Shown piece by piece: positions 8,470 through 42,789 of a DNA stretch of 64,000 bases. The number at the start of each line of letters is the position of its first letter. The first letter of the stretch is position 1. Under the pieces are notes generated by a model. The model was not told the origin of the DNA. It saw nothing but the letters and a program-made list of their open reading frames with translations, and made no database searches. The translations under genes and the position numbers were made by a program. Origin of the DNA: an uncultured Mageeibacillus sp. Its GTDB lineage: Bacteria; Bacillota; Clostridia; Saccharofermentanales; DTU023. The DNA lies in assembly GCA_964606165.1 (NCBI GenBank), contig CAZSFQ010000003.1, forward strand, positions 64,322 to 128,321, given 5' to 3'.

Positions 8470-8560
8470 GCTTACCTACCTACCTTTTATCAGGAAATGC
8501 CCATGAAAACATGAGCATTTCACCAAGACACGGGAACTGTGCCATTCCCGCCGCTACAGA

Positions 8561-9361: not shown

Positions 9362-9572
9362 TCGATCTCCTCTTTCTTGGCATTTGTCCGGCTCTCATCC
9401 GGTAAAGGTGGATATCTGATTAAGAATGTGTAGATTATAGCATAGGGAGTGCCCAACATATCAGGTATCCGGTCCGCTCCCATCCCGCTGGGCGCCTTTT
9501 CGCCGCCCGCGTGATACCATGATACAGGGTTCCATTGTGCCCTCAAAAGTGATGTGAAAAGAGGAAGTTAAA

Positions 9573-10999: not shown

Positions 11000-11002
11000 G
11001 GC

Positions 11003-11293: not shown

Positions 11294-11399
11294 TCACTCC
11301 TCTATTTAAAATGTCAAAGGCACATACGTGGCCATCAAACCGCATTATACCTGAAAGGGCTTTAAAAATCAAGGTAAATCACGCCGTAAGCGCCTGTTT

Positions 11400-12482: not shown

Positions 12483-12540
12483 TCTTTCATTTTATGGGTC
12501 AAAGCGACGCCTGTCGAGTTGTATTGCCATCGGGAAAAAG

Positions 12541-19175: not shown

Positions 19176-19193
19176 AACTTGTCACTCCTGTGA

Positions 19194-19706: not shown

Positions 19707-19839
19707 GGTACATTCCTTTCAACAGGCTTGACGCTGGCTTATGCACGCGGGCATTATCTCACACAAATATGGCGCAGGCTTGAATTTGTAACGGCAGTCT
19801 CAAAATTGCCGAATCCGTTGATTAACACTATGAGTAACC

Positions 19840-20844
19840 CTATTCCTCTTTTGGAGGGAAATCCCGGAAAATCTGATCGAAAAGCAGGTTGACACTTCTC
19901 TGTGTCTCGGAGCTCAGCTGCTCAAAGCGATTGAGCAGTTCACGACCTGTCACGGTCAGCTTGCTGCTTCCCCCCTCCTGGCCGCCTGGTTGCCGGTCGG
20001 CTACCGCCGCGCCCAGTTCCTCTTCCAGGATGTTGAGTATCTGCCAACCCTTGCTGTAGGAAAGTTTCATGCGGATACAGGCGGTCCGGACCGAGCCCGT
20101 CTCATCGATCAAACGCAGCAGGGTCGCGGGGCCGGGGCCGAAAAATACCGAATCACGGGCAAGACTCAGCTTGAGGCGGGCACGCATTGGCAAAGGATCC
20201 TCTTCGATCCATCCAGGCTTCCGGCCCGGGGAATCGACCAGCCTGTCCAAGCCGCTGAGAATTCCCGGGTCGCTGACGGCAATCCTTTCAACCGGACCCG
20301 GTGACAGGGAAACCAGATCAGCCGGGGTCTTCCCGGCTGATCGCCGGGGGATTTTCGCGATTACCCCCCGGTGAAAAGCAAGGGGCAGCCCCTCCTCGCC
20401 TTCAAAAACGGGAACAGCGACCGGCTCCCCCGACGCCAATAAGGTCATCAGCGTTTCCTTGCTGACCGAAGGAATCAGGGGTGTGGCCAGCAGTACTTTT
20501 TCGCAGGCCGGACAGGTCCTTTCCGCGTAGTCCAGACCCATCATGGCGTCGTCAAAAAAGGTGGACTCCTTCCAGTCTGGATTGTTGAGACACACGACGC
20601 TCATCCTGGCCAGATGGCGCTCCAGCAGCTCATTCTCAAATCCTGTAATCACGATAACCGGGGCTGTTCCGACGAGTTGGAAGCGGATGATCACCCGCTC
20701 TATCAAGGTCACCTGGCCCAGGCGGATCATGGCCGGGGGCAGGTCACGCTCATCGCCGGCGAATCCGGCCGCCGCAAGGGCTGGATCAGGTGGCTTGGAG
20801 GCGACGATGACCGCCGCCCCGCGTGCGGCTTGAACCAGGTTCAT
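19840..20844 (-). CDS. MocA/YgfJ-like nucleotidyltransferase domain with degenerate motifs, fused to a ModE-N-terminal-type winged-helix DNA-binding domain
   Basis: The N-terminal ~200 aa is MobA/MocA-like (VIVITGFENELLERHL, NNPDW). The C-terminal ~110 aa, FGPGPATLLRLIDETGSVRTACIRMKLSYSKGWQILNILEEELG...GGQEGGSSKLTVTGRELL, matches the ModE N-terminal HTH pattern. The start overlaps the xdh stop as ATGA. Confidence 0.65.
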   Translation of the reverse strand: MNLVQAARGAAVIVASKPPDPALAAAGFAGDERDLPPAMIRLGQVTLIERVIIRFQLVGTAPVIVITGFENELLERHLARMSVVCLNNPDWKESTFFDDAMMGLDYAERTCPACEKVLLATPLIPSVSKETLMTLLASGEPVAVPVFEGEEGLPLAFHRGVIAKIPRRSAGKTPADLVSLSPGPVERIAVSDPGILSGLDRLVDSPGRKPGWIEEDPLPMRARLKLSLARDSVFFGPGPATLLRLIDETGSVRTACIRMKLSYSKGWQILNILEEELGAAVADRQPGGQEGGSSKLTVTGRELLNRFEQLSSETQRSVNLLFDQIFRDFPPKEE

Positions 20845-23411
20845 GCCTTCTTCTTCCGGTAGAAGGTATCATCCATGGGAAGGCTGGTCCGCATCCTGCC
20901 ATCCAGCCGGAAGTAGGCGTGGGCGACAGAGGGCGCGATGGGAATACAGGCAAGCTCGCCGATTCCGCGGGCGCCGTAGGCGACGTCTACGTAGCCTGGT
21001 CCCTTGACGATATGGGTTTCGATTTCCGGGATGCGATTGGCCCGGAAAAGACCGTAAGTACCCAGTTTGAACTTGGGGATGCCGCCGGGGTTGACAAACT
21101 CTTCCGTCAAGGCATAGCCAAGGCCCATGACACAGCCGCCTTCAATTTGTCCTTCCACCGCGGTGACATTGACCGGCGTCCCGACATCGTAGGCACCCAC
21201 CATCCTTTGAATCTCCCCTTTTTCGTCAGGGATGGCCACCTCGCAGCCGTAGCTGTAGCCGATGTGGCTTACCGGATGCTCCTTGGGCGATCCGAGCGGA
21301 TCCGTGGGCGGACCGAATTCACCGAAGAACTCCATGCCCTCCATCCTGGAAAGGTCTCCGCCCACAGCGCCCAGGGCTGCTTTTAAGTCCTGAGCCGCCT
21401 GCCGTGCGGCCTCCCCGGTAAAGAGAGTCTGGCGCGAAGCCGTGCTGGTGCCGGCATCCGGCGTGCGGTCCGTATTGGGCAATTCAAAGACTGTATCGGT
21501 TACTTCACAGTCCAGGGTTTGACAAACAATCGAAGTCACCACCTGAGCGACACCCTGTCCTGAGCAGGCGGCAGACGTGCGGATGTGGATTTTCCCTTTC
21601 TCAACCGACAGGGTGCAGCGCCCGAAATCCGGAACACCGACGCCCAGGCCGCTGTTTTTGAAACTGCAGGCGATCCCCGCGTAAGGGCTGGATTCATAGG
21701 CTTCCCTGACCGCCTCAAGGCACTCGGCAAGGCCGCAGCTGGGATCGACAATCTGGCCGTTGGGGAGCACATCGCCCGGTCTGACTGCATTGAGATAGCG
21801 GAATTCCCAGGGGTCCATGCCGCACTTATCCGCCAGGAGGTTCAGGTTGCATTCCATGGCGTAGCAGCTTTGGGTGACTCCGAAACCCCGGAAGGCGCCC
21901 GAGACAACATTGTTGGTGTAAACGGCCTTGCCCGAGATGTCAATATTCTGAAAATTGTAGGGCCCCGCCGCGTGGGTACAGGCCCGCTGGGTGACGGGTC
22001 CGCCAAGCGAGGCGTAGGCGCCTGTATCGGCGATGATCTCCGCGACGAGGGCCGTCACGCGGCCGTCCGCGTCACAGGATGTTGTCATTTTCATGGTCAT
22101 GGGATGCCGTTTGGTATGGACAATGGTGCTTTCATAGCGGGACAGCCTGACATTGACCCGGCGCCCCGTTTTCCAGGCCAGCAGGGCCGCGTGATGCTGG
22201 ACACTCATGTCCTCACGGCCCCCGAAAGCGCCGCCGACCAGGGCTGACTGGACATGCACCCGCTCCGGCTCGATCTTCAGCATCTCGGACACTTCCCGCT
22301 GCTCATCGTAAATGGACTGGGAGGCTGTAATCAGGTGGACACCGCCATCTTCGGAAGGCCAGCCGATGGCGCACTCCGGCTCCAGAAAGGCATGTTCCTG
22401 CCATGAGACCTGGTAGGTTTCCGTCACCACATGCGCCGCCTCGGCGACAGCCTTGCGCGCGTCACCCCGGATCAGCCGTTCGCTTGACAGGATATTGCCC
22501 TTTTCATGGATCTTGGGGGCGCCTTCCTTCATGGCCTCAAAGGGATCAAGAAGAGGCTCAAGTTCCGTGTAGTCGACCTCAATCAGATCAAGCACTTCCT
22601 GGAGGCTCTCCCGCTTGCCTGTCGCCACCAGGGCGACCGAATCACCGATGTAGCGTGTAATCTCCCCCTCGGCTATCATGACATCCCAGTCCCGCACAAT
22701 GTGGCCGATTGTGTTGTTGGGCACATCAGCCGCGGTCAGAACCGCGACACAGTCTGGATGCTGGAGAGCCTTTGACACATCGATCCTGTTGACGCGGGCG
22801 CGCGGATAAGGGGTTCGCAGAGCCCGGCCGTAGATCATGTCGTCGAAGCTGTAGTCATCCGGGAATTTGCCGGTACCCAGCACCTTTTCCATGACGTCGA
22901 TGCGCTGGGACCGGTCCCCGACGCGGATCTCCTTATCTGCTTCGGGGATACTTTTATCCTCCCGAAAGAACCTGGCAGCCAACTCGATGGCGTCGATTAT
23001 TTTTTTATAGCCGGTACAGCGGCAGAGATTGCCTGTGATGGCCTTTTTGATTTCCTGGCGGGTCGGATCCGGATTTTGATCGAGAAGGACCTTGGCGGCC
23101 ATGACCATTCCCGGTGTGCAAAAACCGCACTGAACCGCGCCGCACTCGGCAAATGTATGGACATAAACTTCCTTCTCACGCGGGGTCAGACCCTCGACGG
23201 TCATGATACTGGATCCGTCAAACCTCGATACATTCATGATGCATGATTTGACAAGTTTGCCGTCCGCGATGACTGAGCAGGTGCCGCAGGTACCTTCACT
23301 GCAGCCATCCTTGACCGAGGTCAGGCCGAGATCGTCACGCAGAAAATCGATCAGCCGCTTATCCTCCGGAACACGATAAATCTGCCGGTTGACTGTTAGA
23401 GCCCAGGCCAT
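20841..23411 (-). CDS. xdhD: Molybdopterin-dependent hydroxylase of the XdhD / aldehyde-oxidoreductase type, with fused [2Fe-2S] and Mo-cofactor domains
   Basis: N-terminal GCSEGTCGTCSV, CGFCTPG and CRCTGY 2Fe-2S motifs, followed by ~700 aa of Ald_Xan_dh large-subunit sequence. The ATG at 23411 has an AAGGAGG RBS. Confidence 0.8.
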   Translation of the reverse strand: MAWALTVNRQIYRVPEDKRLIDFLRDDLGLTSVKDGCSEGTCGTCSVIADGKLVKSCIMNVSRFDGSSIMTVEGLTPREKEVYVHTFAECGAVQCGFCTPGMVMAAKVLLDQNPDPTRQEIKKAITGNLCRCTGYKKIIDAIELAARFFREDKSIPEADKEIRVGDRSQRIDVMEKVLGTGKFPDDYSFDDMIYGRALRTPYPRARVNRIDVSKALQHPDCVAVLTAADVPNNTIGHIVRDWDVMIAEGEITRYIGDSVALVATGKRESLQEVLDLIEVDYTELEPLLDPFEAMKEGAPKIHEKGNILSSERLIRGDARKAVAEAAHVVTETYQVSWQEHAFLEPECAIGWPSEDGGVHLITASQSIYDEQREVSEMLKIEPERVHVQSALVGGAFGGREDMSVQHHAALLAWKTGRRVNVRLSRYESTIVHTKRHPMTMKMTTSCDADGRVTALVAEIIADTGAYASLGGPVTQRACTHAAGPYNFQNIDISGKAVYTNNVVSGAFRGFGVTQSCYAMECNLNLLADKCGMDPWEFRYLNAVRPGDVLPNGQIVDPSCGLAECLEAVREAYESSPYAGIACSFKNSGLGVGVPDFGRCTLSVEKGKIHIRTSAACSGQGVAQVVTSIVCQTLDCEVTDTVFELPNTDRTPDAGTSTASRQTLFTGEAARQAAQDLKAALGAVGGDLSRMEGMEFFGEFGPPTDPLGSPKEHPVSHIGYSYGCEVAIPDEKGEIQRMVGAYDVGTPVNVTAVEGQIEGGCVMGLGYALTEEFVNPGGIPKFKLGTYGLFRANRIPEIETHIVKGPGYVDVAYGARGIGELACIPIAPSVAHAYFRLDGRMRTSLPMDDTFYRKKKA

Positions 23412-23455
23412 GATTGCTTCCTCCTTAATTGATCTTGCTTCCACTCACCCTTGAA

Positions 23456-24859
23456 TCAGCGGATATCCCGGTCCGGCAGCTGCCTTCTCAGGTACTGGCC
23501 ATCCGCTTCCTCAATCACAATCTTACCAGAAGCGACCTTGTGGCGGCCCCGCAAAAACACGTCACGCACCCTGCCTTTGAGCTCGAAGTTCTCGTAGGGG
23601 GTGTAGTCACAGTTTTCGTGGAGATCCTCCCCCTTGACCGTCCATCGCGGCTCGGGGTCGAAGACGACAATATCCGCGTCACTGCCCGCTTCCAGGATGC
23701 CCTTGCGGGGGTATAAACCGAAATATTTTGCCGCGTTGGTTGAGGCAACTTCGGAAAAACGATTGATGTCCATCCGGCCCTGGGCGACGCCATAGGTGTA
23801 GAGCAAGTGCATCCTCAGCTCAATCCCCGGCGCGCCGTTTGGGATTTTCGAAAAATCGTCCCGGCCCATTTCTTTCTGGCCCTTGAAATTGAAGGAGCAG
23901 TGATCGGTACCAACGAACTGGATTTCCCCGGACGCGAGTCCTTTCCAAAGGGCTTCCTGGTCCCGGCGCTCACGAAGCGGCGGGCTCATGATATACTTGG
24001 CCGCCTCAAAATCCTCACTGGTGGGTGTCCCGTAGCGGGAGGCGTCAAGGAGCAGGTACTGCGGACACGTTTCAACAAGGATATGGATGCCGCGTTCCCT
24101 GGACCGGTTGATGGCTGTCAGGCCCCTTGCTGTCGACAGGTGAACGATGTGGTGAGTGGCGTGAAGGAGGTGGTTGACCGCCTCCAGGCGCACGATGGCC
24201 TCTTCCTCCAGTTCGGCCGGCCGGCTGATCTGATGATAATAGGGTGATAAATGCCCCTTTTCGCGCTCACGGCGGACCAGGACATCGATGAGCAGGCCGT
24301 TTTCACAGTGAAAGCCAATGGTGGCCCCCAGACGCTGCGTTTCTTCCAGGGCATGGTAGATCTCATCCTCCTGGACCATCATGTTATCTTTGTAGGCCAT
24401 GTACATTTTGAAGGAGCTGACGCCGCCGGCAACGATTGATTCCATCTCCTTTTTCAGCTGGCTGTTCCACTCCGTCAGCGCCATATGGAAACCGTAGTCG
24501 ATGGCGCATTTGCCATCCGCTTTTTCGTGCCAGCGCTTCAGACCCTGGGCCATGGTTTCGCCGTGGAACTGGGTCGCGAAATCGATGACCGTTGTCGTGC
24601 CTCCGGCCAGGGCCGCCCGCGTACCGCTCGCGAAATCGTCGGCCGTCACCGTACCCATCGACTCCAGCTGGAGGTGGGTGTGGGTCTCGATCCCGCCCGG
24701 CAGGAAATAGAAACCGCGGCAGTCGAGCACCTCCTCGTTCTCACGGGGCGTCAGCTTGCCTGTTTCTTCAATGATTTCACCTTTGATTCGGATACTTCCC
24801 CGGACTGTTTCCCGGGGCAGGACGATGAAGCCGTCCTTGAGCAATAGGGATTGTTCCAT
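23456..24859 (-). CDS. hyuA: Dihydropyrimidinase / D-hydantoinase family cyclic amidohydrolase
   Basis: HTHLQL metal motif, SSFKMYMAYK (carboxylated Lys) and VGTDHCSF. 467 aa. Confidence 0.85.
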   Translation of the reverse strand: MEQSLLLKDGFIVLPRETVRGSIRIKGEIIEETGKLTPRENEEVLDCRGFYFLPGGIETHTHLQLESMGTVTADDFASGTRAALAGGTTTVIDFATQFHGETMAQGLKRWHEKADGKCAIDYGFHMALTEWNSQLKKEMESIVAGGVSSFKMYMAYKDNMMVQEDEIYHALEETQRLGATIGFHCENGLLIDVLVRREREKGHLSPYYHQISRPAELEEEAIVRLEAVNHLLHATHHIVHLSTARGLTAINRSRERGIHILVETCPQYLLLDASRYGTPTSEDFEAAKYIMSPPLRERRDQEALWKGLASGEIQFVGTDHCSFNFKGQKEMGRDDFSKIPNGAPGIELRMHLLYTYGVAQGRMDINRFSEVASTNAAKYFGLYPRKGILEAGSDADIVVFDPEPRWTVKGEDLHENCDYTPYENFELKGRVRDVFLRGRHKVASGKIVIEEADGQYLRRQLPDRDIR

Positions 24860-24879
24860 CTTAACCTCTTTGATTGATC

Positions 24880-24903
24880 AGCGCCCCGGCTCGCCGGGGC
24901 GCT
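24880..24903 (-). other. GC-rich intercistronic stem-loop between ssnA and hyuA
   Basis: AGCGCCCCGG-CGAG-CCGGGGCGCU forms a 10-bp perfect stem with no U-tract. Confidence 0.5.
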
Positions 24904-24911
24904 CCAGAGTC

Positions 24912-26234
24912 TTACAGATTCGGCCAGATGGCCGCGGCGCGTTTGGCTGTGCGGGCGAATATCTTCTTTTCATCAACCGTCAGTATCTCGCGGTTGCGCA
25001 TAACAAGCTTGCCGTTGATTACCACGTCATTGGTCATACGGCCGTAGCCGCCAAAAAGCAGATGGCCCTTCCAGTTGTCGCCGCCAAAAGGCGTGAAGGG
25101 GAAATAATCAAGCGTGATAACATCGGCATAGGCCCCCGCTTTCAAGACGCCCAGAGGCCGCTTGAAGTGAAGGGCCGCGATGGCCGGATTGCCCTCATAC
25201 TGCAATTGCAGCGCCTGGCTGAAACCGACCGTGGGGTCGGACAGGCGGTGGGACTGCAGAATTTTCGATACCTTGATTGATTCAAACATGTCGTGGGTGT
25301 AGGCGTCTGTCCCCAGTCCCAGCCGGATGCCGCGGCGCAGCATGCCAAGGACAGGGGTTGCCCCCACGGCGTTGCCCATGTTGGACATGGGGTTGTGGAC
25401 GACCGTGGTATCGGTTTCCGCCAGAATATCGAGTTCACGACCGTTGACATTGACGGCATGGACGGCGATGGATCTGGGACCCAGCAGGCCCCAGCCGAGC
25501 AGGCGCTCGGTCACCCTCATGTCGTACTTCTTCAGGCTGTCGTACTGATCCTCCCTGCCTTCGCCGACATGGATATGGTAGCCTGCCTCAATGCCATCCA
25601 TGGCCTTTTTGACCTTTTCCATGGTTTTGTCGGAGATGGTGAAAGAGGCGTGCATGCCGAACATGCCTTTCACCATATCCTGTTCATCGGTGTTCATGGC
25701 CTTGATGAAGTTGACGTTTTCCTTGATTTCCTGATCCGCGGTTTTCACACCGTCCCGGTCGGACAGCTCCATGGAAAAAGAGCCGCGGATGCCGGTCTTC
25801 TTTGCCGCCTCAGCCAGGGTAAACAGCGACCCCTCCACAGCATGGGGACTGGCGTGGTGGTCAAACAGGGTGGTCACACCGTTGCGGATGCTGTCGATGT
25901 AGGTCGTATAGGCTGACAGCTCGTTGTCTTCCATGGTCAGGCTTCGGTCGAGTGCCCACCAGAGGTTTTTCAGTATCTCGGGGAAATTCCGCGTCGGCTT
26001 TGATACCCCCATGCCCCGGGCGTAGGAGCTGTAGATATGGGTGTGCGCGTTGATCATGCCTGGCATGATGACGCGGCCCTGCGCGTCCAGCACCTCATCA
26101 TCCGGGTATTGTTTTTTCAAGTCATCAAAGTCGCCCACCGCGTCAATCAGCTGATCGACTATGCGCAGGCCGCCATTTTCAAAGTAGGGGTGATCGGGAT
26201 CGTTGGTCACCAGTCTTCCCTTGCCGATAATCAT
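24912..26234 (-). CDS. ssnA: SsnA-type putative aminohydrolase (chlorohydrolase / guanine-deaminase superfamily)
   Basis: 440 aa. MPGMINAHTHIYSS HxH motif with amidohydrolase His and Asp residues (HVGEG, HAVN, LGTD). Sits in ygfK-ssnA synteny. Confidence 0.75.
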   Translation of the reverse strand: MIIGKGRLVTNDPDHPYFENGGLRIVDQLIDAVGDFDDLKKQYPDDEVLDAQGRVIMPGMINAHTHIYSSYARGMGVSKPTRNFPEILKNLWWALDRSLTMEDNELSAYTTYIDSIRNGVTTLFDHHASPHAVEGSLFTLAEAAKKTGIRGSFSMELSDRDGVKTADQEIKENVNFIKAMNTDEQDMVKGMFGMHASFTISDKTMEKVKKAMDGIEAGYHIHVGEGREDQYDSLKKYDMRVTERLLGWGLLGPRSIAVHAVNVNGRELDILAETDTTVVHNPMSNMGNAVGATPVLGMLRRGIRLGLGTDAYTHDMFESIKVSKILQSHRLSDPTVGFSQALQLQYEGNPAIAALHFKRPLGVLKAGAYADVITLDYFPFTPFGGDNWKGHLLFGGYGRMTNDVVINGKLVMRNREILTVDEKKIFARTAKRAAAIWPNL

Positions 26235-26260
26235 CTTCTACCTCCTGTCAAATAGGCTGT

Positions 26261-29200
26261 TTAATGCTCATTGCAGTCATGTTCATTGTTCAGCAGCCAA
26301 GTGAAATCTTTTGTGACAGCCGTTATCACAGCCGCCATCTGCGCTCCTGCCTTCGCGGCCAGCTCGCTTTGCGGCACATCGAAAACACGGCCCCGGTCGT
26401 CGCGGATCCGGTATCTTCCTTCTGCCAGCCGCAGGAAGCCTGTGTTATCTGAATCGGAAAAATCTTCCCCGCTCCAGAAGACAGTCAGCTTATCTTTGTA
26501 CGGTTTGCCCGCGTGGGGACAGAAAGTGGCGCAGTTGCCGCATTCGTTGCACATGCCGTCGATGTGGACAATCTGTTCGGAATTGGCAAAACCCGGGATG
26601 GCCAGGGCCACATTGGCCCGGTTGGGGCAGACCTCCGTGCAGATACGACAGACCTGGTCGCAGATCAGGCAGCGCTGGCCTTCTTCCGGGGGCTGTTTTT
26701 CTTCCCTGAGTTCTCCCCTGCGTTCCAGGATGACCGCCTCATCGACAGGAACCCGCGCATGGACGAAATCGTGGTCCAGGCCCTCTCTGGACAGGATATC
26801 CAGGGCCGCCTTTTTTGCGTCGCCCATGGCCGCGACAACCGTTGACGGTCCCTTTCGGCAATCACCGATGACATAAAGGCCGTCAATTGAACTCTCCATG
26901 GCAGCTGACAGGCGCGGATCACCGTAGCGGTCCGTCTTCATGCCGATTTTCGTGAAGAGCTTCTTGTCAACGCGGGCACCGGTCGCGCCGATCACCGTGT
27001 CGAATTCAAGTGTTTCGAACCCGCCCGTTCCCAGTGAGGCACGGCGGCCTGATTCATCGAAATCGCCCAGTCTTTGTCTTTCGCAAACCAGCTTGCTGCC
27101 TTCATAACGGACGGGAGCCAGAAGCTCAAGCCATCCGATGCCCTCTTCCATGGCCGCATCGAATTCATCCTGGCTGGCGGGCGCGTACATCTCAGTCCGG
27201 CGGTAGACAATGGTCACCTCCGGATCGCCCGGCATCCGTTTCGCAAGCCTTGCAGCGTCCATGGCTACATCACCGGCGCCGATAACGGCCACCCGCTTGC
27301 CCAGGTCACGGGGACCTTCTTCCTTGACGCCGATCAGGAAGTCGAGCGCGTCGAGAACGCGGCCGCTTTCCTCTTCTACCGGCGGCCGCCCCTGCTCCCA
27401 CGCCCCGGTCGCAAGAATCAGGTAGTCATAGGACTTTTTCAGTTCATCCGGATCAAATTGCGGGTTGGCATTGAAATGGAAATTAACCCCGGCAGCTTCG
27501 ACCAGCCTGTAATCACGGTCAATCTGCTCTTCCGAGATACGGAAGGAAGGGATGGCATAGCGGACGATACCATGGGAAGCGGCACGCTTCTCAAAGACAT
27601 CGACCTCAACACCGTTTCTTCTGAGATAATAGGCCGCGGCCAGGCCTGCGGGGCCGGCGCCGATTACACAGGCTTTCTTATCGGTCTTCAGGGGGCTGAC
27701 CGACATCTTGCTGATGTAGGCATCCTGAGCCTGGTCGGCTGCCATCAGCTTGATATCCCTCATGTGCAAGGAGCTGTCATAGTCCAGGCGGGTGCACTTC
27801 TCCCGGCAGGGCTGGGCGCAAAGGACGCCTGTAATGGTGGGGCAGGGATTGTCGATGGCAATCACCCGCATGGCCTCATGGCAGTCACCCCTGGCGACCA
27901 GGGTATTGTATTCGGGTATCTGCTGTTCGATGGGGCAGCCGCCGTCCTTGCAGGGCGCCTTGTAACAGTCATAAAGAGGCAGTTCGGATCCGGTTTCCCT
28001 GGAAGCCACTTTCTCCCGCCAGCGTTTTTGCATGCGCGGGTCAGCCATGGTATCTTCTGCCAGTTTCTCCAGTTTGGCGACATCGATCCTGCCGCCCTTT
28101 CCGAGCAAGGATTCTGTTTCACGCGCCATCTGAGTCAGGCGCATATAGCCGCCTGGTTTCAAAAGTGTCGTCGCGACCGTCACCGGGCCGATTCCGGTTT
28201 CCAGCAGATCCTTCAAGTTGAAGGCGTCGGCGCCGCCCGCAAAGGATACAGGCAGCTTGCCGTCAAAGGCGCGCGACAGATTCAGGGCAAGGTTGATGGT
28301 CAGGGGCATCAGGGCCCGGCCCGACATGTACATCTCCTCCGACGGCACCTCGCCGCGCTTAACATCTACCGGACAGGTATTGGAAAGCTTGACGCCAAAG
28401 GCCAGTTTCTCTTTTCCGGCAACCGCCAGCATGCGGGTAAATATTCCGACCGCGTCTTCGTACTGCAGGTCGGCCAGAAAGTGTTTGTCGGGGAAGGCGA
28501 TGTAATCGTAGCCCAGATCGTCCAGTGTCCGGCGGACAAAATCATAGCCCAGCATGGTGGGGTTGCACTTGACGAAGGTATGAAGCTTTTTTTCGGTCAG
28601 AAGATAATGGGCAATCCGCTCGATCTCGTCCGGCGGGCACCCGTGGAGTGTCGACAGGGTTGCCTGATGGCAGATTTGCGGGGAGATGGCATCGATGACT
28701 GCTTGGTCAACCTTGTCGAAAAGATCTTGATGGCTTTTCAGGAATTGGATGGATTCGGTAAAAAGAGCAAGGCGCGACGCGTCCTTGAGGCCCTCGATGA
28801 AAGCGTCCATCTTGGGCAGTTTGATCCCGTCGAGATCATAGCCAAGGCTCATGTTGAAGGCAAAGTCATTGCCGTCGGACAGGTCGAATTCCACAGCCAG
28901 GACCTTGATGGCAATCCAGGCCTTGATGTACTCGTCGAAGGCTTCCTGGACGGTCAGCTCCGTCGACCACTCGCAGTTATAGCACTCGTCCTCGGCGTTG
29001 ATGCAGGGCTTGGCCACCGCCTGGCGGATTTCCTCACCATCCATCTTCTGGACCGTCTTCAGTTCAACAAAACGCGCGCCAGCCAGATAGGAGACAATGA
29101 TGTTCTGAGCCAGCTGGGAATGGGGGCCCGCTGCCGGCCCGACAACCGAGGCAATCCTGTCACCAAAGGGAGTGACGAAGCGGCTCCCCGACTGGTTCAC

Positions 29201-29308
29201 GTAAAATTTGCTCTTGTCGAGTCCAAAAACACTTCCCTGTGCTTTGTACTCATCAAGGCTCCACTCGATTAGATTCGCAAAGCTGATGGGTCTCATGATG
29301 TCGCTCAT
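26261..29308 (-). CDS. ygfK: YgfK-type Fe-S flavoprotein oxidoreductase (annotated in databases as putative selenate reductase subunit YgfK)
   Basis: 1015 aa. N-terminal DPD/DHODH-like barrel and central dinucleotide folds (VIGAGPAGLAAAYYL, VAVIGAGDVAMDAA). Cys clusters are CAQPCREKC, CLICDQVCRICTEVCP and CNECGNCATFCP. Confidence 0.8.
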   Translation of the reverse strand: MSDIMRPISFANLIEWSLDEYKAQGSVFGLDKSKFYVNQSGSRFVTPFGDRIASVVGPAAGPHSQLAQNIIVSYLAGARFVELKTVQKMDGEEIRQAVAKPCINAEDECYNCEWSTELTVQEAFDEYIKAWIAIKVLAVEFDLSDGNDFAFNMSLGYDLDGIKLPKMDAFIEGLKDASRLALFTESIQFLKSHQDLFDKVDQAVIDAISPQICHQATLSTLHGCPPDEIERIAHYLLTEKKLHTFVKCNPTMLGYDFVRRTLDDLGYDYIAFPDKHFLADLQYEDAVGIFTRMLAVAGKEKLAFGVKLSNTCPVDVKRGEVPSEEMYMSGRALMPLTINLALNLSRAFDGKLPVSFAGGADAFNLKDLLETGIGPVTVATTLLKPGGYMRLTQMARETESLLGKGGRIDVAKLEKLAEDTMADPRMQKRWREKVASRETGSELPLYDCYKAPCKDGGCPIEQQIPEYNTLVARGDCHEAMRVIAIDNPCPTITGVLCAQPCREKCTRLDYDSSLHMRDIKLMAADQAQDAYISKMSVSPLKTDKKACVIGAGPAGLAAAYYLRRNGVEVDVFEKRAASHGIVRYAIPSFRISEEQIDRDYRLVEAAGVNFHFNANPQFDPDELKKSYDYLILATGAWEQGRPPVEEESGRVLDALDFLIGVKEEGPRDLGKRVAVIGAGDVAMDAARLAKRMPGDPEVTIVYRRTEMYAPASQDEFDAAMEEGIGWLELLAPVRYEGSKLVCERQRLGDFDESGRRASLGTGGFETLEFDTVIGATGARVDKKLFTKIGMKTDRYGDPRLSAAMESSIDGLYVIGDCRKGPSTVVAAMGDAKKAALDILSREGLDHDFVHARVPVDEAVILERRGELREEKQPPEEGQRCLICDQVCRICTEVCPNRANVALAIPGFANSEQIVHIDGMCNECGNCATFCPHAGKPYKDKLTVFWSGEDFSDSDNTGFLRLAEGRYRIRDDRGRVFDVPQSELAAKAGAQMAAVITAVTKDFTWLLNNEHDCNEH

Positions 29309-29417
29309 ATATGGTCACCTCTCCTCATTTTCTGGTTTTACCCGGACAATAACCTGTCGCGCGGACAAGGCGGCTGATCTTTAGTTTATCAGTTTTGCCG
29401 CTTTTTTTAGAAGAAAT

Positions 29418-29447
29418 GACCGGGACTCCCTTTGGGGAATCCCGGTC
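29418..29447 (-). terminator. Probable intrinsic terminator after ygeY, internal to the cluster
   Basis: GACCGGGAUUCCCC-AAA-GGGAGUCCCGGUC imperfect hairpin followed on the minus strand by AUUUCUUCU. Confidence 0.5.
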
Positions 29448-29471
29448 AACGGTATCATCGGATTGGTTCGC

Positions 29472-30695
29472 TTACGCTTCCTTGGTAATGTCCACGTAGA
29501 GCGAAGGCATGACACTGTAAATCGCCGCGCAGCGGACGACGTCCTCTTTCCAGGTCACCTCGTTGGGCGCGTGAGCCTGAGCTTCCTTGCCAGGGCCGAG
29601 GCCGATGCAGGGGATGTCGTGGCGGCCCATGATGGCGACACCATTGGTTGAGAAGGTCCACTTATCGACCTTGGGCGCCTGGTAGAGATTGGTGTAGGCG
29701 TCCACCAGGGCCCGCGTCTGCGGCGCGTCCTCGGGAATAACCCAGGTGGGAAAATAGCAATCCTGCTCATAGACGAAGCCGGTCCAGGACGGGCGGTCGT
29801 ACTTGTACATGGTAACAACACCGCCATGCTTTTTGACGGATGGCAGGGCTTCGATTTCCGCTATTGCCGATTCCCAGGTCTCGCCCCAGGTCAGGCGGCG
29901 GTCCAGGGAAATGGCACAGCTGTCCGCGACCGCGCAGCGCGATGGCGAGGTGTAGAAAATCTGGGAAGTCGTGACTGTGCCCTTGCCCAGGAAGGGGTCG
30001 TCCTTGAGGTGGTTGTTGAGCTCTTCCACTTCCTTCAGGATGTCGGCCATTTTGTAGATGGCGTTCTCACCGCGCTCGGGGGCCGAGCCGTGGCAGGAAA
30101 TGCCCTTGACCTCAACACGGATCTCCATGCGGCCACGGTGTCCGCGGTAAACATGCATGTCGGTCGGTTCGGTCGAGACCACGAATTCGGGTCTGATGTT
30201 TTCGTTCTCAATGAGGTGGAGCCAGCACATGCCGTCGCAGTCTTCCTCCTGTACGGTGCCCGTGACCAAAAGCGTGACGTCGTCATCAATCATGCCCAGG
30301 TCCTTGGCAATTTTCGCGCCATAGACGGCCGATACAACGCCGCCCAGCTGGTCGGAAGCGCCGCGTCCGCCCACTTGGGTTTCAGTCTCAAATCCTTCGT
30401 AGGGGTCAAATTCCCAGTTGGTGATTTCGCCAATACCCACGGTATCGATATGGCCGTCAAAGGCGATGACGCGGTCGCCTGTGCCCATCCAGCCCAGCAC
30501 GTTGCCGAGCTGATCGAATTCGGCCTTGTCGTAACCGAGTTTTTCCATCTCTTCCTTGATGCGGCGGGCCACACCTTCCTCTTCACAGCTTTCGCCGGGA
30601 ATCTTGACCAGGTCGCGAAGGAACTTTACCATATCTTCTTTATAAGCCTCAGCGGCTTGGCGTACGCGGTCGTAATCAATTGCGGTTTTTGTCAT
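29472..30695 (-). CDS. ygeY: YgeY-type M20-family metallohydrolase (peptidase M20 / deacylase)
   Basis: M20 motifs [16 protein letters not shown] and TVQEED. The ATG at 30695 has an AAGGAG RBS; the ORF-track start at 30749 is an extension into ygeW. Confidence 0.8.
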
Positions 30696-30730
30696 CTTGG
30701 GTACACTCCTTTTATCAATTATATTTGGCT

Positions 30731-31927
30731 TTAAGCATTGTCCGCCCAACGGGGGGCTGCGCTCTTCCAGAGTTCTTCAAGCTTCGCGCCCGGAGCCTTG
30801 ATCTTCTGGAGGAAAATCATGGCCGCGATGATGTAAGGCTTGAAGCTGGCTTCTTTGTACAGGGGGATCCGGTAACGGTCAAAGACAGAAGCATCCACCT
30901 CGCCCTCCTCGCAGGAGACACCCGTGATGTCGGCCGGCAGGCAATGCATGTAGAGCGCCTTGCCGCCGCGCGTCAGCTTCATCATGTCTTCGGTACAGGC
31001 CCAGTCCTTATGGAGGGCATTTTGCGCCAGAAGTTCCTGCTCAAGTGCGTTGATGCCGGCCTGGTCGCCTTTGGCGTAGAGGTCCGTGCGGATTTCCATG
31101 GCCTTGAAGGGCGCCCAGCTCTTGGGGTAGACAACATCGGCATCCTTGAAAGCCTCCGCCATCGACTCGACGCGGGTGAACTTGCCGCCGTACATCTCCT
31201 CATTATGCCTGGCCACGCCTTCGATTTCGTCCATGATGTCATAGCCTTGCGGGTGGGCCAGGACAACTTCCATGCCAAAACGCGTCATCAGCCCTACGAT
31301 GCCTTGCGGGACCGACAGCGGTTTGCCGTAGGAGGGTGAATAGGCCCAGGTCATGGCAAGTTTCTTGCCTTTCAGGTTCTCAACGCCGCCGAACTCGTGG
31401 ATGATGTGGAGGGCATCGGCCATGGACTGGGTGGGGTGATCGATGTCACACTGCAGGTTGACCAGGGTCGGGCGCTGTTCAAGCACGCCGTCCTCATAGC
31501 CCTCCTTGACGTAATCCGAAAAACCCTTCATGTAGGTGTGACCCTTGCCGATGTACATGTCATCGCGAATGCCGATCACGTCCGCCATGAAGGAAATCAT
31601 GTTGGCTGTCTCCTTGACAGTCTCCCCGTGCGCGATCTGGGATTTGCCCTCATCAAAGTCCTGGACCTCAAGGCCGAGAAAATCACAGGCCGAGGCAAAG
31701 GAGAACCTTGTCCGGGTCGACTGGTCACGGAATAGCGAGATACCCAGCCCCGAGTCAAAAATTCGTGCACTCTTGTTATTCTCGCGGAGCTCGCGAAGCG
31801 CGTCGGCCACTGTGAAAATGGCCATAATCTCATCCTGGGACTTGTCCCAGGTAAGAAAGAAATCGTCCTGGTAGAGACCCCTGTAATCGTATCCTTCCAG
31901 TTGCTTGATCAGTTCATTGATTTTCAT
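30731..31927 (-). CDS. ygeW: YgeW-type (knotted) carbamoyltransferase
   Basis: Carbamoyl-phosphate motif STRTRFSF and the HCLP motif (YMHCLPAD). ~398 aa, longer than OTCase/ATCase, as expected for YgeW. Confidence 0.8.
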
Positions 31928-31965
31928 TCCTATCTCATTTCCTCTCTTGAATTGGGGTAGCAAAT

Positions 31966-33438
31966 CTACATGCTGGCAAGAACGCCTGCGCGCTCGTTGA
32001 ACTCTTCTGTCAGGCGGTCGATTTCATAAACCTGGTTATGGATGTTGTGCCAGTAATTGTCGTCATACCACTGCGCGTTGAGCTCTTCCAGCGAGCGGCC
32101 CTGTTGCTCGACCCAGGTGTAGTACTTGAGGTTGTGGACACGCCTGCGTGTCCAATAGGTGAACTCTTCCATGTGGTCGACCTTCATGGATTTCAAGTTG
32201 TGCCAGTAGTCGCGGGCAGCCAGTTCATAGCTGTATTCTGCTTCTTCATCGAGCTCAAGGATGCGTGACTGGTACATCTCGGCCGAGTCGGTTGCGACGG
32301 TCAGCAGGACGTCTTTTTCAGTCAATTCGTAGTATTTGGCCATCTTGATCAGGCCCAGGACATTGGCAATGCCGCTGATGCCCAAGAATGACAGTTCCTC
32401 CAGCGCCTGTTTGGACAGGCCTGTTTCCTTCATCAGGTAGTCGTGTCCGACTTCCGAGTTGAAAAGGCGGAGCAGATTCTGGGTGTTGTTGTCATCAATG
32501 GCGACAACCATATCGGTATTCTTGACATTGTGGACAAAGGGGATGTGCTTGTCACCGATGCCCTCGATGCGGTGTCCGCCAAAACCGTTGTTAAGGATGG
32601 TCGGGCATTGCAGGGCCTCGCCCACCGCCACCTTTATGTGGGGGAATTTCTCTTTGAGGTAATCGCCCGCGCTCAAACTGCCTCCGCTGCCGCTTGTAAA
32701 GAAGGCGCCGAACAGCCTGGAATCTTCATCTTTGATTTCATTGTAGACTTCTTCAAGGGCGGGGCCGGTCGCATGGAAGTGCCACAGCACGTTGCCCATC
32801 TCCTCAAACTGATTGAAAATGAAGGCGTCCGGACGTGTCGCGCGGATTTCCTTGACCTTGGCGAAAATTTCATAGACATCACTCTCGCAGCCGGGGGTCG
32901 CGATCACTTCATCCGCGATACTCTGCAGCCAGTCGAAACGCTCCTGGCTCATTTCCTCGGGCAAAATGGCGATTGATTTACAACCCAGCAGCTTTGAGTT
33001 GAAAGCGCCTCCGCGGCAGTAGTTGCCGGTTGACGGCCAAACAGCCCAATTCTCATAAGGGTCAAACTGACCGGTCACAAGACGGGGAACCAAACAGCCG
33101 TACGAAGCGCCGACCTTGTGGCAGCCGGTGGGGAACCATTTGCCGACCATGACAAAGACGCGTGCCTTGATAGCAGTCAATTCCTTGGGAATTTCAATAT
33201 AATTAACCCCGTCGTATCCGCCGCCGTCACGTCTCGGCTCGTTCTTCCATGTAATGCGGAACAAGTTAAGCGGATTGACGTCATCTGTGTTGACATTTTG
33301 TAGAGCTTTTTTGATTTTGTCGGGAACGTTTTCAACTGGATTGCGCAATTGCGCGAAAGTTGGAATAATGATTTTGTTCTCACGCGCGCGTTTAATGGCG
33401 CTCTCGAGACCGTCCTCACGGATCGTCAGATCGATCAT
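31966..33438 (-). CDS. PLP-dependent enzyme of the tryptophan-synthase-beta (PALP) fold, ~490 aa; specific function unknown
   Basis: FPTGCHKVGAS (PLP-lysine motif analogous to NPTGSFKDRGA) and the Gly-rich loop FFTSGSGGSLSAG. The ATG at 33438 has an AAGGAG RBS. First gene of the cluster. Confidence 0.7.
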   Translation of the reverse strand: MIDLTIREDGLESAIKRARENKIIIPTFAQLRNPVENVPDKIKKALQNVNTDDVNPLNLFRITWKNEPRRDGGGYDGVNYIEIPKELTAIKARVFVMVGKWFPTGCHKVGASYGCLVPRLVTGQFDPYENWAVWPSTGNYCRGGAFNSKLLGCKSIAILPEEMSQERFDWLQSIADEVIATPGCESDVYEIFAKVKEIRATRPDAFIFNQFEEMGNVLWHFHATGPALEEVYNEIKDEDSRLFGAFFTSGSGGSLSAGDYLKEKFPHIKVAVGEALQCPTILNNGFGGHRIEGIGDKHIPFVHNVKNTDMVVAIDDNNTQNLLRLFNSEVGHDYLMKETGLSKQALEELSFLGISGIANVLGLIKMAKYYELTEKDVLLTVATDSAEMYQSRILELDEEAEYSYELAARDYWHNLKSMKVDHMEEFTYWTRRRVHNLKYYTWVEQQGRSLEELNAQWYDDNYWHNIHNQVYEIDRLTEEFNERAGVLASM

Positions 33439-33574
33439 TGTTTTTCTCCTTGCTAAGTGATTGTAGGTGATAGGTTGGGCCGGGCTCCGAAAGAAACCCA
33501 AACCTCAACAACTATAGCACATAATATTGTAATAAAGACAGGCCGGCTTGGCTAACAAATTTAAGACACATTTG

Positions 33575-34405
33575 TTACGCATCCGGAAGGGACTCCCCGA
33601 CCTGTGAATCTTTACCTGAATCTTGCTTCTGAAGCAGCTCTTCCTGCCGGGCGTGTTTATTGAGTCTGTTGTACATCAGGATGCCTGCCAGGGCGACAAC
33701 CGCGGTAAGGGCAAATACGGCAACGGCATAAAGATAGTTTTGCGCGCCAAGAAGGCCGCCGCTTACGGTGGAGGTGACGACGGATAAGAGTCGCGCCGAG
33801 ATGATGATCAGCCAGGCCGGCAGGCGCATGGGCGTCAGGCCCGCCAGGTAGGTGAGAATATCCTTGGGGGTACCGGGAAGGAAGAGAAGGATATACATCA
33901 AGACATTGAGCTGGCCCGGCTTGCGGAACAATCTGACCTGGTCGATCTTCTCCGGTTCAAAAAACAATTCAATAACGGGCCGGCCGAAGCGCTTGACAAG
34001 CAGGAAGATCAGGATGCTTGCAGCGTAAATGGCAGCAACACAGATGAGCGTGCCCTCGACCACTCCGAAGGCATAGCCCGCGGCCAGTTCAAAAGGTTCG
34101 CCGGGGATGATGGCAATGACTACCTGCATGAAGTTGGCGAAAAAGAAAATCAACCTGCTGGAGACGGGATGACGGGAAACCATGGCCCGGACCCGAAGCG
34201 GGTCGGAGAAAAAATCGATGGCCGCTTCGCCCCAGCAGATGTAGACCATAACAGAGGATGCCATGATCAGGACAAGAATGCCGATTGTCAGGGAGCGTTG
34301 AAACAGGCGCCTTTTGCGGACAGCGTACAGGGCGCGGGCGTCACTGATATTTATTTTAAACCCGGCTCGGTTTCGTGCCGTCGTCATCAGCTTGTCTACT
34401 TTCAT
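33575..34405 (-). CDS. TVP38/TMEM64 (DedA-related, SNARE-associated) family membrane protein
   Basis: Polytopic membrane protein with IPGEPFELAAGYAFG and FLPGTPKD motifs. Confidence 0.75.
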   Translation of the reverse strand: MKVDKLMTTARNRAGFKINISDARALYAVRKRRLFQRSLTIGILVLIMASSVMVYICWGEAAIDFFSDPLRVRAMVSRHPVSSRLIFFFANFMQVVIAIIPGEPFELAAGYAFGVVEGTLICVAAIYAASILIFLLVKRFGRPVIELFFEPEKIDQVRLFRKPGQLNVLMYILLFLPGTPKDILTYLAGLTPMRLPAWLIIISARLLSVVTSTVSGGLLGAQNYLYAVAVFALTAVVALAGILMYNRLNKHARQEELLQKQDSGKDSQVGESLPDA

Positions 34406-34527
34406 TTGCGCAAAAAGAGGCGCTCAGGCGCACGATGCCATTCTATCATGGAGACAGGTGTTTAGGTTCACCGATCGATTGTATAATGCGTCTGGGAACA
34501 TAAGAGCCGAAAGCAGGAGGACAAAAC

Positions 34528-35457
34528 TTGCATCAACCCCTGGTCAGCGTCATTATTCCTTTCTACAACGCCGAGCGCTGGATTTCACGCTGTCTGGACT
34601 CTGTAACCGGCCAAACTTACAGGGCGCTTGAAATCATTCTTGTATCCGACGGGTCGGCGGATGGATCCGACGGGATCGCCCGCCAGTACGAAGGTAAAGA
34701 TCCGAGGGTGCGCTATGTGCGTCAGGACAACCGGGGGGTGGGCGAGGCCCGTAACCACGGGCTGTCCCTTGCCACAGGAGAATGGATCTGCTTTATCGAT
34801 GCCGATGATTATGTCAGCCATAACTACATCCAGGTCATGGTGGATGCCCTCGTATCGGACGAAACCGACGCGGTCGCTGTCAATTTTTTCATGGAATTAC
34901 CACGGGGCTGGCGACTTCCCTATCCCTTCATCGTGCTGCGGAAGAGACTGAGCGGACAGCAAGCGGTAAAGCAATCTTTCCGGGTACTCTTCTTCCCCAC
35001 CTTCGTGTGGAACAAACTATTCCGCCGCAGTCTCTTTACCGAAAACGGGATCCGCTTTCCCTCGATTCTGTACGAGGACGCCCTTGTTGTTCCCCTCCTT
35101 TTTTTCCACTCCAGGCAAGTGATTGTCCTGAAAAAGTCCTGCTACCACTACCTGCGCCATTCCGGAAGCCTGACTCACGAACTCGCCTCCAGGCACGTCC
35201 ACGACTATCTCAGAGCCGCCAGCATGCTGCGAAGACATCTTTTGGAATCGGGAGAGTGGGAGAAATGGGAAAAACCATTCACCCGATGGCTGAACCGGAT
35301 CAGGGCGCAAATCTTCTTTACCCTTTACCTGACCAGGCGGACCATGCCATGGAAAGAAAGGGACCGCCTGGTCCGCAAAACAGGCGCGGCCGTCAAAACA
35401 ATCAAGCGGGCGGGTGACGCGGATCTGGACCCGGATGAATTGGTCTTCACGCTCTGA
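34528..35457 (+). CDS. Family 2 glycosyltransferase
   Basis: TTG start. VSVIIPFYNAERWISRCLDSV..QTY...EIILVSDGSADGS and FIDADD motifs. Confidence 0.85.
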   Translation: MHQPLVSVIIPFYNAERWISRCLDSVTGQTYRALEIILVSDGSADGSDGIARQYEGKDPRVRYVRQDNRGVGEARNHGLSLATGEWICFIDADDYVSHNYIQVMVDALVSDETDAVAVNFFMELPRGWRLPYPFIVLRKRLSGQQAVKQSFRVLFFPTFVWNKLFRRSLFTENGIRFPSILYEDALVVPLLFFHSRQVIVLKKSCYHYLRHSGSLTHELASRHVHDYLRAASMLRRHLLESGEWEKWEKPFTRWLNRIRAQIFFTLYLTRRTMPWKERDRLVRKTGAAVKTIKRAGDADLDPDELVFTL

Positions 35458-35549
35458 ACACAAAAGCAGGCCCGCGGGACAGGATCCCGCGGGCCATTTC
35501 TTTGCCAAATCCCTGCCGCGCCGGTCTGGCCCAGCAGGGCTGAGCTCTC

Positions 35550-39659: not shown

Positions 39660-39807
39660 TGCCCTATCCTCCATCTATCTATTAGTCATCGGGCAACACT
39701 GACTCCTCAAAACGTGTCCTCATCCATGGCCAAGCCTATGCTCCTGATTTGAACAAAGTTTGAAGTTGCCGCAGCTGTAACTCTGGTTCTCACTTTGCAT
39801 GGAACAG

Positions 39808-41755: not shown

Positions 41756-42619
41756 CTACACTCCCCTCGCTGACATGATCAGGTCAATCTGATCGGGATT
41801 CAAGCCGACCATGGCTTCACCCAGATTCTCGGAAACATGGGCCAGACGCTCCGGATCGTCGTAGTGCTCACAGGCTTCGACGATGGCTCTGGCCCGGCGT
41901 ACCGGGTCGCCTGACTTGAAGATTCCCGACCCGACGAATACGCCCTCCGCGCCAAGCTGCCTCATCAGGGCGGCATCGGCCGGTGTCGCGACACCGCCGG
42001 CGGAAAAATTGGGAACCGGAAGCTTACCGTGTTTATGGACGTATTGGATCAGTTCAACCGGAACGGCCAGGTCGCGCGCCCGGACGTAAAGTTCGTCGGG
42101 GCGAAGCGAGACCACCTCCCCGATCTGTTGATTGATTTTGCGCATGTGACGGACCGCCTGGACCACGTCACCCGTACCAGGCTCACCCTTGGTCCTTATC
42201 ATCATGGCCCCTTCGGCCAGGCGCCGAAGCGCCTCATCAAGACCACGCGCGCCGCACACAAAAGGCACATCAAAGCTGGTTTTATCAATATGGAAGACTT
42301 CGTCGGCGGGAGTCAGCACTTCACTTTCATCGATGAAGTCAACCCCGATGGCCTGGAGAATCTGTGCCTCAACAAAATGGCCGATCCGCACCTTAGCCAT
42401 CACCGGGATCTTGACCGCCTTCATAATCGCCTTGATCATGGCGGGATCACTCATTCTTGATATGCCACCTGCCGAACGAATGTCGGCCGGAACGCGTTCG
42501 AGGGCCATGACCGATACGGCTCCGGCCTCCTCGGCGATCCGGGCCTGCTCGACATTGACGACATCCATGATGACGCCGCCTCTCAGCTGTTCCGCAAGGT
42601 TGCGGTCAAATTGTTTCAT
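41756..42619 (-). CDS. pdxS: Pyridoxal 5'-phosphate synthase lyase subunit PdxS
   Basis: [21 protein letters not shown]...[11 protein letters not shown]...[10 protein letters not shown] are hallmark PdxS motifs. The ATG at 42619 has a GGAGG 10 nt upstream. Confidence 0.9.
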
Positions 42620-42789
42620 CAGAACCATGCCTCCAATCCTTAAAAACAAATACGATTATACATCTCAAAAAAGCCCCGATAGCGGAGCTTTGTCGCAATC
42701 ATCCGGCCTTGGTCCGTACCTGTTTCAGTATACGCCGACGGTTTAGCGAACGCAAGAAATGGACTGCCGCGGATATTCCGTTACGGCAA

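Follow-up and report, generated by a model that had tools for sequence, protein, structure and literature searches.

We propose, with moderate confidence, that a 490-aa pyridoxal-phosphate (PLP) enzyme of an uncultured Mageeibacillus sp., here called PALP490, acts together with a co-inherited threonine-synthase-like (ThrC-like) enzyme as a two-gene module that replaces YgeX at the exit step of the reductive urate pathway, and apparently does so in many bacteria of the gut and the environment. The PALP490 gene lies in a 64,000-nt stretch of contig CAZSFQ010000003.1, referred to below as the window, and coordinates are positions in this window unless a contig or locus is named. Gut bacteria degrade urate anaerobically by a pathway that was elucidated only in 2025: urate is converted to 2,8-dioxopurine, which is reduced by YgfK, the ring is opened by SsnA and HyuA, YgeW and YgeY strip two ureido groups to yield 2,3-diaminopropionate, and YgeX, as the last step in published schemes, converts 2,3-diaminopropionate to pyruvate and ammonia (10.1101/2025.05.19.654654; 10.1101/2025.04.24.650524). 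YgeX, the 2,3-diaminopropionate ammonia-lyase, is the exit-step enzyme in E. coli and C. sporogenes, and no mention of an alternative to it was found in the searched literature.

PALP490 leads a urate gene cluster

PALP490 is the lead gene of a cluster with the order PALP490-ygeW-ygeY-ygfK-ssnA-hyuA-Se-XDH, all on one strand, in which the six pathway genes behind it (20841-31963) score above their NCBIfam cut-offs. An earlier note, made from the letters of the window, had described a 490-aa PALP-fold gene at 31966-33438 in the position usually held by ygeX; translation and a Pfam PALP match agree with this, and the reported gap of 38 nt between the PALP490 stop and the ygeW ATG (31927) is exact. 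The cluster comprises the following features.

31966..33438, minus strand: PALP490 coding sequence, CysK-like fold-type-II PLP enzyme, 490 aa
30731..31927, minus strand: ygeW, knotted carbamoyltransferase (TIGR03316, 755 bits against a cut-off of 500)
29472..30749, minus strand: ygeY, M20 hydrolase (TIGR03526, 653 bits against 321.5); limits are those of the open reading frame (ORF), and the real start is probably more internal
29417..29448, minus strand: hairpin 3′ of ygeY, 14-bp stem followed by a T-run
26261..29308, minus strand: ygfK, Fe-S flavoprotein of the 2,8-dioxopurine reductase type (TIGR03315, 1313 bits)
24912..26234, minus strand: ssnA, aminohydrolase (NF005540, 579 bits; TIGR03314, 520 bits)
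23456..24859, minus strand: hyuA-type D-hydantoinase/dihydropyrimidinase (TIGR02033, 554 bits)
20841..23444, minus strand: Se-XDH, Se-dependent xanthine-dehydrogenase-type molybdenum hydroxylase (TIGR03311, 1280 bits)
19840..20844, minus strand: MobA/MocA-like nucleotidyltransferase fused to a ModE-type helix-turn-helix (HTH) domain, putatively for cofactor maturation or regulation

Since the hairpin and T-run follow ygeY, PALP490, ygeW and ygeY are probably transcribed as one unit that ends there.

Genomes with ygeW carry ygeX or the gene pair

The distribution of the genes was examined in 399 scored genomes of the source organism's class, each at least 90% complete. Among the 22 that have ygeW, 14 have ygeX and lack both PALP490 and an orthologue of the ThrC-like gene, their best matches to the latter being ordinary ThrC proteins at 30-37% identity. 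The remaining eight lack ygeX, and all of them (8/8) have both the ThrC-like gene and PALP490 or a distant branch of it. Seven of these eight hold a close PALP490 orthologue; the other, genome G329, has a 455-aa protein of a branch at 35% identity, and its gene adjoins ygeW in a run that also holds the ThrC-like gene, arcC, ygeY, ssnA and ygfK. Close PALP490 orthologues are thus rare in the class, with 7 of the 399 genomes. Two families (f11 and f51) each contain both solutions, ygeX in some genomes and PALP490 with the ThrC-like gene in others, and the switch has therefore occurred more than once; the family of the source organism is a third lineage.

Elimination within the source genome (1.58 Mb, 94% complete) leads in the same direction. 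A canonical ygeX just outside the cluster, which the earlier note had named as a finding that would undermine its proposal, was found neither in the cluster nor anywhere else in this genome, across which the YgeX model TIGR03528 has no match. Only three PALP-fold genes are present: those for PALP490 and the ThrC-like enzyme, and one for a true OrtB (776 bits), which sits in an ord-ortA-ortB-oraE ornithine cluster beside arcC on contig C1. Any fold-type-II PLP enzyme that disposes of the C3 amino acid of the pathway in this organism is therefore PALP490, the ThrC-like enzyme or both. Searches of the same genome found no other CysK, no CysE match at E<=1e-10 and no urease; a gene of the SDH_alpha family is present.

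Fold and active site of PALP490

In profile searches, a check that the earlier note had proposed, PALP490 is claimed by no curated subfamily. The sole Pfam family passed is the generic PALP (PF00291), at 48.1 bits where 35 are required. NCBIfam scores fall below the cut-offs of CysK (TIGR01139, 96.7 bits against 350.95), CBS (76 against 510), SbnA (TIGR03945, 47.4 against 350) and cysteate synthase (NF053679, 40.9 against 600), and the models for YgeX/DpaL (TIGR03528, cut-off 532), OrtB (NF040741, cut-off 550) and ThrC gave nothing. Identities as OrtB, threonine synthase, cysteate synthase or SbnA were considered and ruled out on these model scores.

The closest relatives with solved structures are, by sequence, cysteine synthases (E~1e-19). 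An AF2 model of PALP490, built on 36 diverse relatives, has a pLDDT of 95.1 and a pTM of 0.94, and its top Foldseek matches in the PDB are CysK, beta-cyanoalanine synthase, Fn1055 and CBS, with a target-normalised TM-score of ~0.83. The earlier note had assigned a fold of the tryptophan synthase beta type; PLP fold-type II and PALP membership hold, whereas the core is that of CysK and the beta-substituted alanine synthases (BSAS) rather than TrpB-like. Normalised to the query, the TM-score is 0.52-0.56 over ~320 of 490 residues at 22-26% identity, and ~80 N-terminal and ~100 C-terminal residues are therefore specific to the family. The C-terminal extension had been noticed before as rich in Tyr, Trp and Glu; indeed, Tyr makes up 9% of the last 98-110 residues (3% of the core), Trp 5% (2%) and Glu 14% (8%). 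The N-terminal extension of ~80-90 residues relative to CysK adds to it and was absent from that description. A known domain was sought in the C-terminal extension and rejected, as Pfam is empty there and the Foldseek matches cover the core only; an Atlas search with the extension retrieved only unnamed ~115-aa clusters, probably fragments of the PALP490 family.

The motifs quoted for the enzyme are all found in the translation, with FPTGCHKVGAS starting at residue 102, SGSGGSLSAG at 249 and the C-terminal strings at 411 and 457. Because the first of these begins at residue 102, the PLP lysine is K108. The key residues assigned to PALP490 are as follows.

K108: Schiff-base lysine
S136-T137-G138-N139: carboxylate loop
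Q210: conserved Gln
G250-S-G-G-S254: phosphate loop
D296-K297: within the GIGDK motif
S385: Ser at the pyridine nitrogen

Among 36 diverse members, 29-35 retain K108, S136-T137-G138-N139, Q210, the phosphate loop (as G-S-x-G-T/S), D296 and S385. Judged from this conservation and from the model, PALP490 is fairly likely to be a catalytically intact, uncharacterised and very conserved branch of the cysteine-synthase/BSAS group. It shares with that group the core fold, the Schiff-base lysine, the S/T-G-N loop, the Gln, the Gly-rich phosphate loop and the Ser at the pyridine nitrogen. It differs in the context of the lysine (HK in place of the SxKDR of CysK), in its low identity (22-26%), in the helical extras at both ends (~80 aa N-terminal, ~100 aa C-terminal) and in residing in a genome without CysE. 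A further difference is GIGDK(H), which in the PALP490 family replaces the GIGAGF of CysK, with Ala changed to Asp at position 296.

For the segment 240-330 the best PDB match is Fn1055 of Fusobacterium nucleatum (5b53/5b55), and a rare Asp after GI(G/S) is common to both proteins. D296 aligns with Asp232 of Fn1055, in the very column at which the D232N chain (5b55) departs from the wild type (5b53). D296 is kept in 32 of 36 members, and the equivalence is one of alignment at an overall identity of ~23%. Fn1055 is a cysteine hydroxyl-lyase that converts Cys and H2O to Ser and H2S, with Asp232 among its listed key residues (PMC12940168). It has 340 aa without the extensions and belongs to another pathway context.

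A threonine-synthase-like partner

The partner, which the earlier note did not include, is a Zn-ribbon ThrC-like PLP enzyme with an N-terminal CxxC...CxxC ribbon. An orthologue was found in 47 of 50 searched genomes that carry PALP490, in addition to the eight ygeX-less ygeW genomes of the class sample. In the source genome its gene lies outside the window.

C4:56597-57853 (locus L089:4598-5854), minus strand: ThrC-like gene of the source genome

The ThrC-like proteins score 203-219 bits on TIGR00260, fall slightly short of the cut-off on PRK08197 and match DpaL models weakly, at 51-57 bits; the partner itself scores 203 bits on TIGR00260 and reaches 190-211 bits against ThrC structures. It shares the PLP lysine and the STGN loop with threonine synthase. 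In place of NP-x-R-x-EGQK, found in the threonine synthases of Aquifex, Mycobacterium and Thermus, it has NP-x-(L/M)-x-EGKK; the Arg, which in threonine synthases binds the substrate phosphate, has given way to Leu or Met in 35 of 36 ThrC-like members. The gene is linked to ssnA or PALP490 and not to hom/thrB; where apart from PALP490, it is divergent from ssnA. Neither homoserine dehydrogenase nor ThrB (above cut-off) was found in the source genome, and the ThrC-like protein therefore hardly makes threonine.

At the C4 locus, the ThrC-like gene is divergent from an ABC transporter of the Bmp/PnrA type, which consists of a binding protein, an ATPase and two permeases. Past the transporter lie a pyridine-nucleotide-disulfide oxidoreductase gene and then a RidA (L-PSP) gene, 7 kb from the ThrC-like gene. 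RidA proteins quench enamines set free by PLP lyases.

Spread of the family and its neighbourhoods

The protein database holds thousands of PALP490 relatives of 489-497 aa at 58-94% identity, under names such as ‘pyridoxal-phosphate dependent enzyme’, ‘cysteine synthase’ and ‘PLP-dependent protein subunit beta’. Clustering at 50% leaves a few full-length lineages and remote branches at 30-46% identity. Carrier species belong to many families of Clostridia, to Halanaerobiales, Chloroflexota, Atribacterota and Bipolaricaulota, and to bins labelled Thermotogae and Spirochaetia; cultured carriers include Halanaerobium kushneri ATCC 700103, H. saccharolyticum and Anaerotignum sp. MSJ-24. Longer relatives (P0020, P0124, P0125, P0156 and P0269) were considered as domain fusions that could serve as Rosetta-stone evidence and were rejected as chimeric gene calls or PALP-only proteins.

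Neighbourhoods were counted by tblastn at 80 PALP490 loci from several phyla, with up to 10 kb on each side. The ThrC-like gene, a 418-aa PALP protein, is found in 44 of these loci and directly downstream of PALP490 in 31. Other neighbours are ygeY (31/80), ygeW (25/80), a YheO-type PAS-HTH regulator (24/80), carbamate kinase (arcC, 23/80), a Bmp/PnrA-type binding protein (11/80), ssnA and guanine deaminase (9/80 each), and ygfK and hyuA (8/80 each). The most frequent layout is yheO-PALP490-ThrC-like divergent from arcC-ygeW-ygeY. Linkage to ygeW and ygeY in other genomes, which the earlier note had left to be checked, thus recurs across phyla. Genome-wide searches for ygeW, ssnA and the ThrC-like gene covered the first 50 of 80 carrier genomes, and those for ygeX covered all 80; ygeW is present in 42 of the 50 and ssnA exceeds its cut-off in 44.

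A distant branch (~455 aa, 33-38% identity) accompanies a Zn-ribbon ThrC-like gene in purine clusters at L083 (G329), L084 (G271) and L086 (G035). At L084 and L086, which come from another genus, the carbamoyltransferase is a 327-aa OTC-like protein and not YgeW, and it is accompanied by ygeY, arcC, adenine deaminase and XDH subunits. Genome G249, with ygeX and no ygeW match, has a solitary distant homologue of 459 aa (L085:5341-6720), the function of which may differ; from their sizes and N-termini, we take its neighbours to be a ctsR-mcsA-mcsB-clpC-like run.

Proposed chemistry of the exit step

Once YgeW and YgeY have acted, the remaining C3 diamino acid would be converted to pyruvate and ammonia, and for the substrate, the products and the division of labour between PALP490 and the ThrC-like enzyme we infer the following scheme. 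The substrate amino acid would form an external aldimine and displace the K108 Schiff base, while the S136-N139 loop and Q210 would grip its carboxylate. The beta-substituent, NH3 in the case of diaminopropionate, would then depart to leave PLP-aminoacrylate, and D296 may position the beta-ammonium group or activate water. PALP490 would yield either L-serine or free aminoacrylate, which decays to pyruvate. Because its aminoacrylate-forming site is complete and carries an Fn1055-like Asp, we favour a reaction at C3 of diaminopropionate, either beta-elimination or water-dependent beta-replacement; the alignment of D296 with Asp232 hints at replacement by water, for which Fn1055 offers a chemical precedent in the conversion of diaminopropionate to serine. 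The ThrC-like partner may deaminate serine or handle the other enantiomer, the latter since the D-specific hydantoinase implies D-configured intermediates. One tentative version, which we hold to be possible though doubtful, is a two-step exit in which a diaminopropionate hydroxyl-lyase resembling Fn1055 yields serine, and a ThrC-derived serine/D-diaminopropionate deaminase or racemase follows; both activities would be undescribed.

Compared with YgeX/DpaL, PALP490 is likewise a fold-type-II PLP enzyme in the slot beside ygeW and ygeY, with a complementary distribution among ygeW carriers. It differs in its CysK-like core (that of YgeX is dehydratase-like), in its length (490 aa against ~400 aa), in giving no match to the YgeX model and in being accompanied by a second PLP enzyme. 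The earlier estimate of ~90 additional residues is accurate, the YgeX model having 396 positions.

Several observations weigh against replacement of YgeX by the pair. First, six of the eight ygeX-less genomes come from one family, and this kinship inflates the apparent complementarity. Second, ygeX exceeds its cut-off in 12 of the 80 carriers and comes near it in three more (~15/80), and in the Blautia metagenome-assembled genome L031 (~5195-12706) ygeX-ygeY-ygeW-arcC stand back to back with PALP490 and the ThrC-like gene. The anti-correlation suggested by the earlier note thus appears in the class sample (14 ygeW genomes with ygeX only, eight with PALP490 only) and is broken in ~15/80 carriers; the exclusion between PALP490 and ygeX is strong, not absolute. 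Since the pair coexists with ygeX in these genomes, the module is more than a simple duplicate of YgeX, and its product may differ. Third, in 13 of 51 fully flanked loci PALP490 has none of the neighbours listed above; a search for ygeW covered eight of these 13 genomes and found it elsewhere in every one. Fourth, one enzyme suffices to convert diaminopropionate to pyruvate, whereas the proposed module has two. Fifth, a complex prediction for PALP490 and the ThrC-like protein gave no interface (ipSAE 0.00) and no support for a heteromer, although such a low score is no evidence against one either; two separate enzymes are more likely. Finally, CysK-type enzymes normally use L-substrates, and the pathway probably delivers the D-form, from D-specific HyuA and UacY (10.1101/2025.05.19.654654).

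The earlier note had raised a non-orthologous replacement of the terminal C3-amine lyase by PALP490. Its position in the ygeX slot, the absence of ygeX and the complementarity support the idea, and we infer that PALP490 replaces the lyase step; the one-for-one picture is incomplete, given the ThrC-like partner and the ygeX genes retained in ~15/80 carriers.

Alternative roles

One possible alternative, which we consider unlikely, reverses the roles: the ThrC-like enzyme would be the true diaminopropionate (or serine) lyase that replaces YgeX, and PALP490 would carry out a separate anabolic beta-replacement, for example making cysteine, selenocysteine or serine from diaminopropionate aminoacrylate, or supplying Se/S for the Se-dependent molybdenum hydroxylase. 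ThrC stands closer to the Ser/Thr dehydratases, and the DpaL-model matches of the partner (51-57 bits) fit a lyase. CysK-type enzymes usually keep the aminoacrylate for a nucleophile and release no pyruvate, which also favours this role for the partner, as do the persistence of the pair alongside ygeX in ~15/80 genomes and the lack of another cysteine synthase in the source genome. In three loci (L045, L058 and L074) serC and serA, for phosphoserine aminotransferase and phosphoglycerate dehydrogenase, follow the PALP490-ThrC-like pair; this linkage is counted on the same side, and it could be a hint at serine or phosphoserine or chance among related genomes. The distributions of PALP490 and the ThrC-like gene are identical, however, and do not separate the roles. 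It is PALP490, not the ThrC-like gene, that holds the ygeX slot in the window operon, so clean a complementarity with ygeX is unexpected for a purely anabolic enzyme, and CysE was not found in the source genome.

An improbable alternative, raised as an option in the earlier note, places PALP490 one step earlier, where it would remove or replace the beta-ureido group of 3-ureidoalanine (albizziin) and bypass or parallel YgeY. BSAS enzymes do take bulky beta-leaving groups and nucleophiles, and O-ureidoserine synthase (3x44) is among the fold matches of PALP490. Yet ygeY is kept beside PALP490 in the window and in 31/80 loci, no urease to deal with the freed urea was found in the source genome, and it is ygeX rather than ygeY that PALP490 complements in distribution.

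Very improbable is a housekeeping cysteine synthase (O-acetylserine/O-phosphoserine sulfhydrylase) that lies near purine genes by chance. Cysteine synthases are the best sequence and fold matches, relatives bear that name in public databases, and no other CysK was found in the source genome; against these stand the 96.7 bits on a CysK model with a cut-off of 351, the 22-26% identity, ~180 extra residues, the change of Ala to Asp at 296, the missing CysE, and the occurrence of ygeW or ssnA in 42-44 of 50 carriers of a gene otherwise rare in the class (7/399). An identity as an OrtB-type thiolase subunit, or as threonine synthase, cysteate synthase or some other long PALP enzyme already known, would agree in fold and roughly in length (OrtB has 464 aa), but it is effectively refuted by the absence of OrtB, ThrC and DpaL model matches, the cysteate synthase score of 40.9 bits against 600 and the presence on contig C1 of a genuine OrtB (776 bits) alongside OrtA, Ord and OraE.

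Gene start and surroundings

By translation of the window, PALP490 begins with the ATG at 33438-33436 and ends with the TAG at 31968-31966. A longer ORF with a TTG start extends to 33501 and is unlikely to mark the true start. Two signals precede the gene.

33446..33451, minus strand: Shine-Dalgarno AAGGAG, 7 nt 5′ of the PALP490 ATG, read from the sequence
33526..33554, minus strand: sigma-70-like promoter match (TAGCCA, 17 nt, TACAAT), a consensus match only

No Rfam match to a riboswitch or other RNA at E<=0.1 was found in window positions 19000-36000. A long open frame antisense to PALP490 (32443-32976, plus strand) was taken as a shadow ORF and not a gene; antisense ORFs of ~524 aa opposite PALP490 at L003, L012, L014 and other loci were read in the same way.

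At the other end of the purine cluster, the fusion of MobA/MocA with a ModE-type HTH domain is an unusual pairing of cofactor maturation with molybdate-type regulation. A few kb upstream of the cluster, one gene (35550-39674, minus strand) encodes a protein of 1374 aa in which six fimbrial domains of the isopeptide-forming RrgB type occur, and another (41756-42649, minus strand) the PLP-synthase subunit PdxS. The ornithine-fermentation genes on contig C1 (L082:2-3581) encode OraE, OrtB and, in one ORF, Ord/OrtA, and the arcC at C1:111972-112880 is the only carbamate kinase of the source genome, so that it would have to serve YgeW too.

Implications

The last step of urate breakdown is without an assigned enzyme in 8 of the 22 ygeW genomes of the class sample and in most of the 80 carriers, across several phyla, and two unnamed, highly conserved PLP families would fill this YgeX gap. 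Where ygeX is demanded as a marker, as in the five-gene definition of 10.1101/2022.12.12.520169, a survey will miss organisms with PALP490. Taking every PF00291 gene for ‘YgeX’, as in Figure 3g of 10.1101/2025.05.19.654654, mislabels the PALP490 family, and one survey in which any PF00291 neighbour is coloured ‘YgeX’ would hide it. The label ‘cysteine synthase’ for PALP490 and, probably, to judge from model scores, ‘threonine synthase’ for its partner would mislead metabolic reconstructions. The cultured carriers allow direct testing of YgeX replacement. The urate pathway of the source organism would be a variant of the known one that is carried by two uncharacterised enzyme families, and if the two-step exit is true, about one third of ygeW-carrying Clostridia would end urate breakdown by chemistry other than that published.

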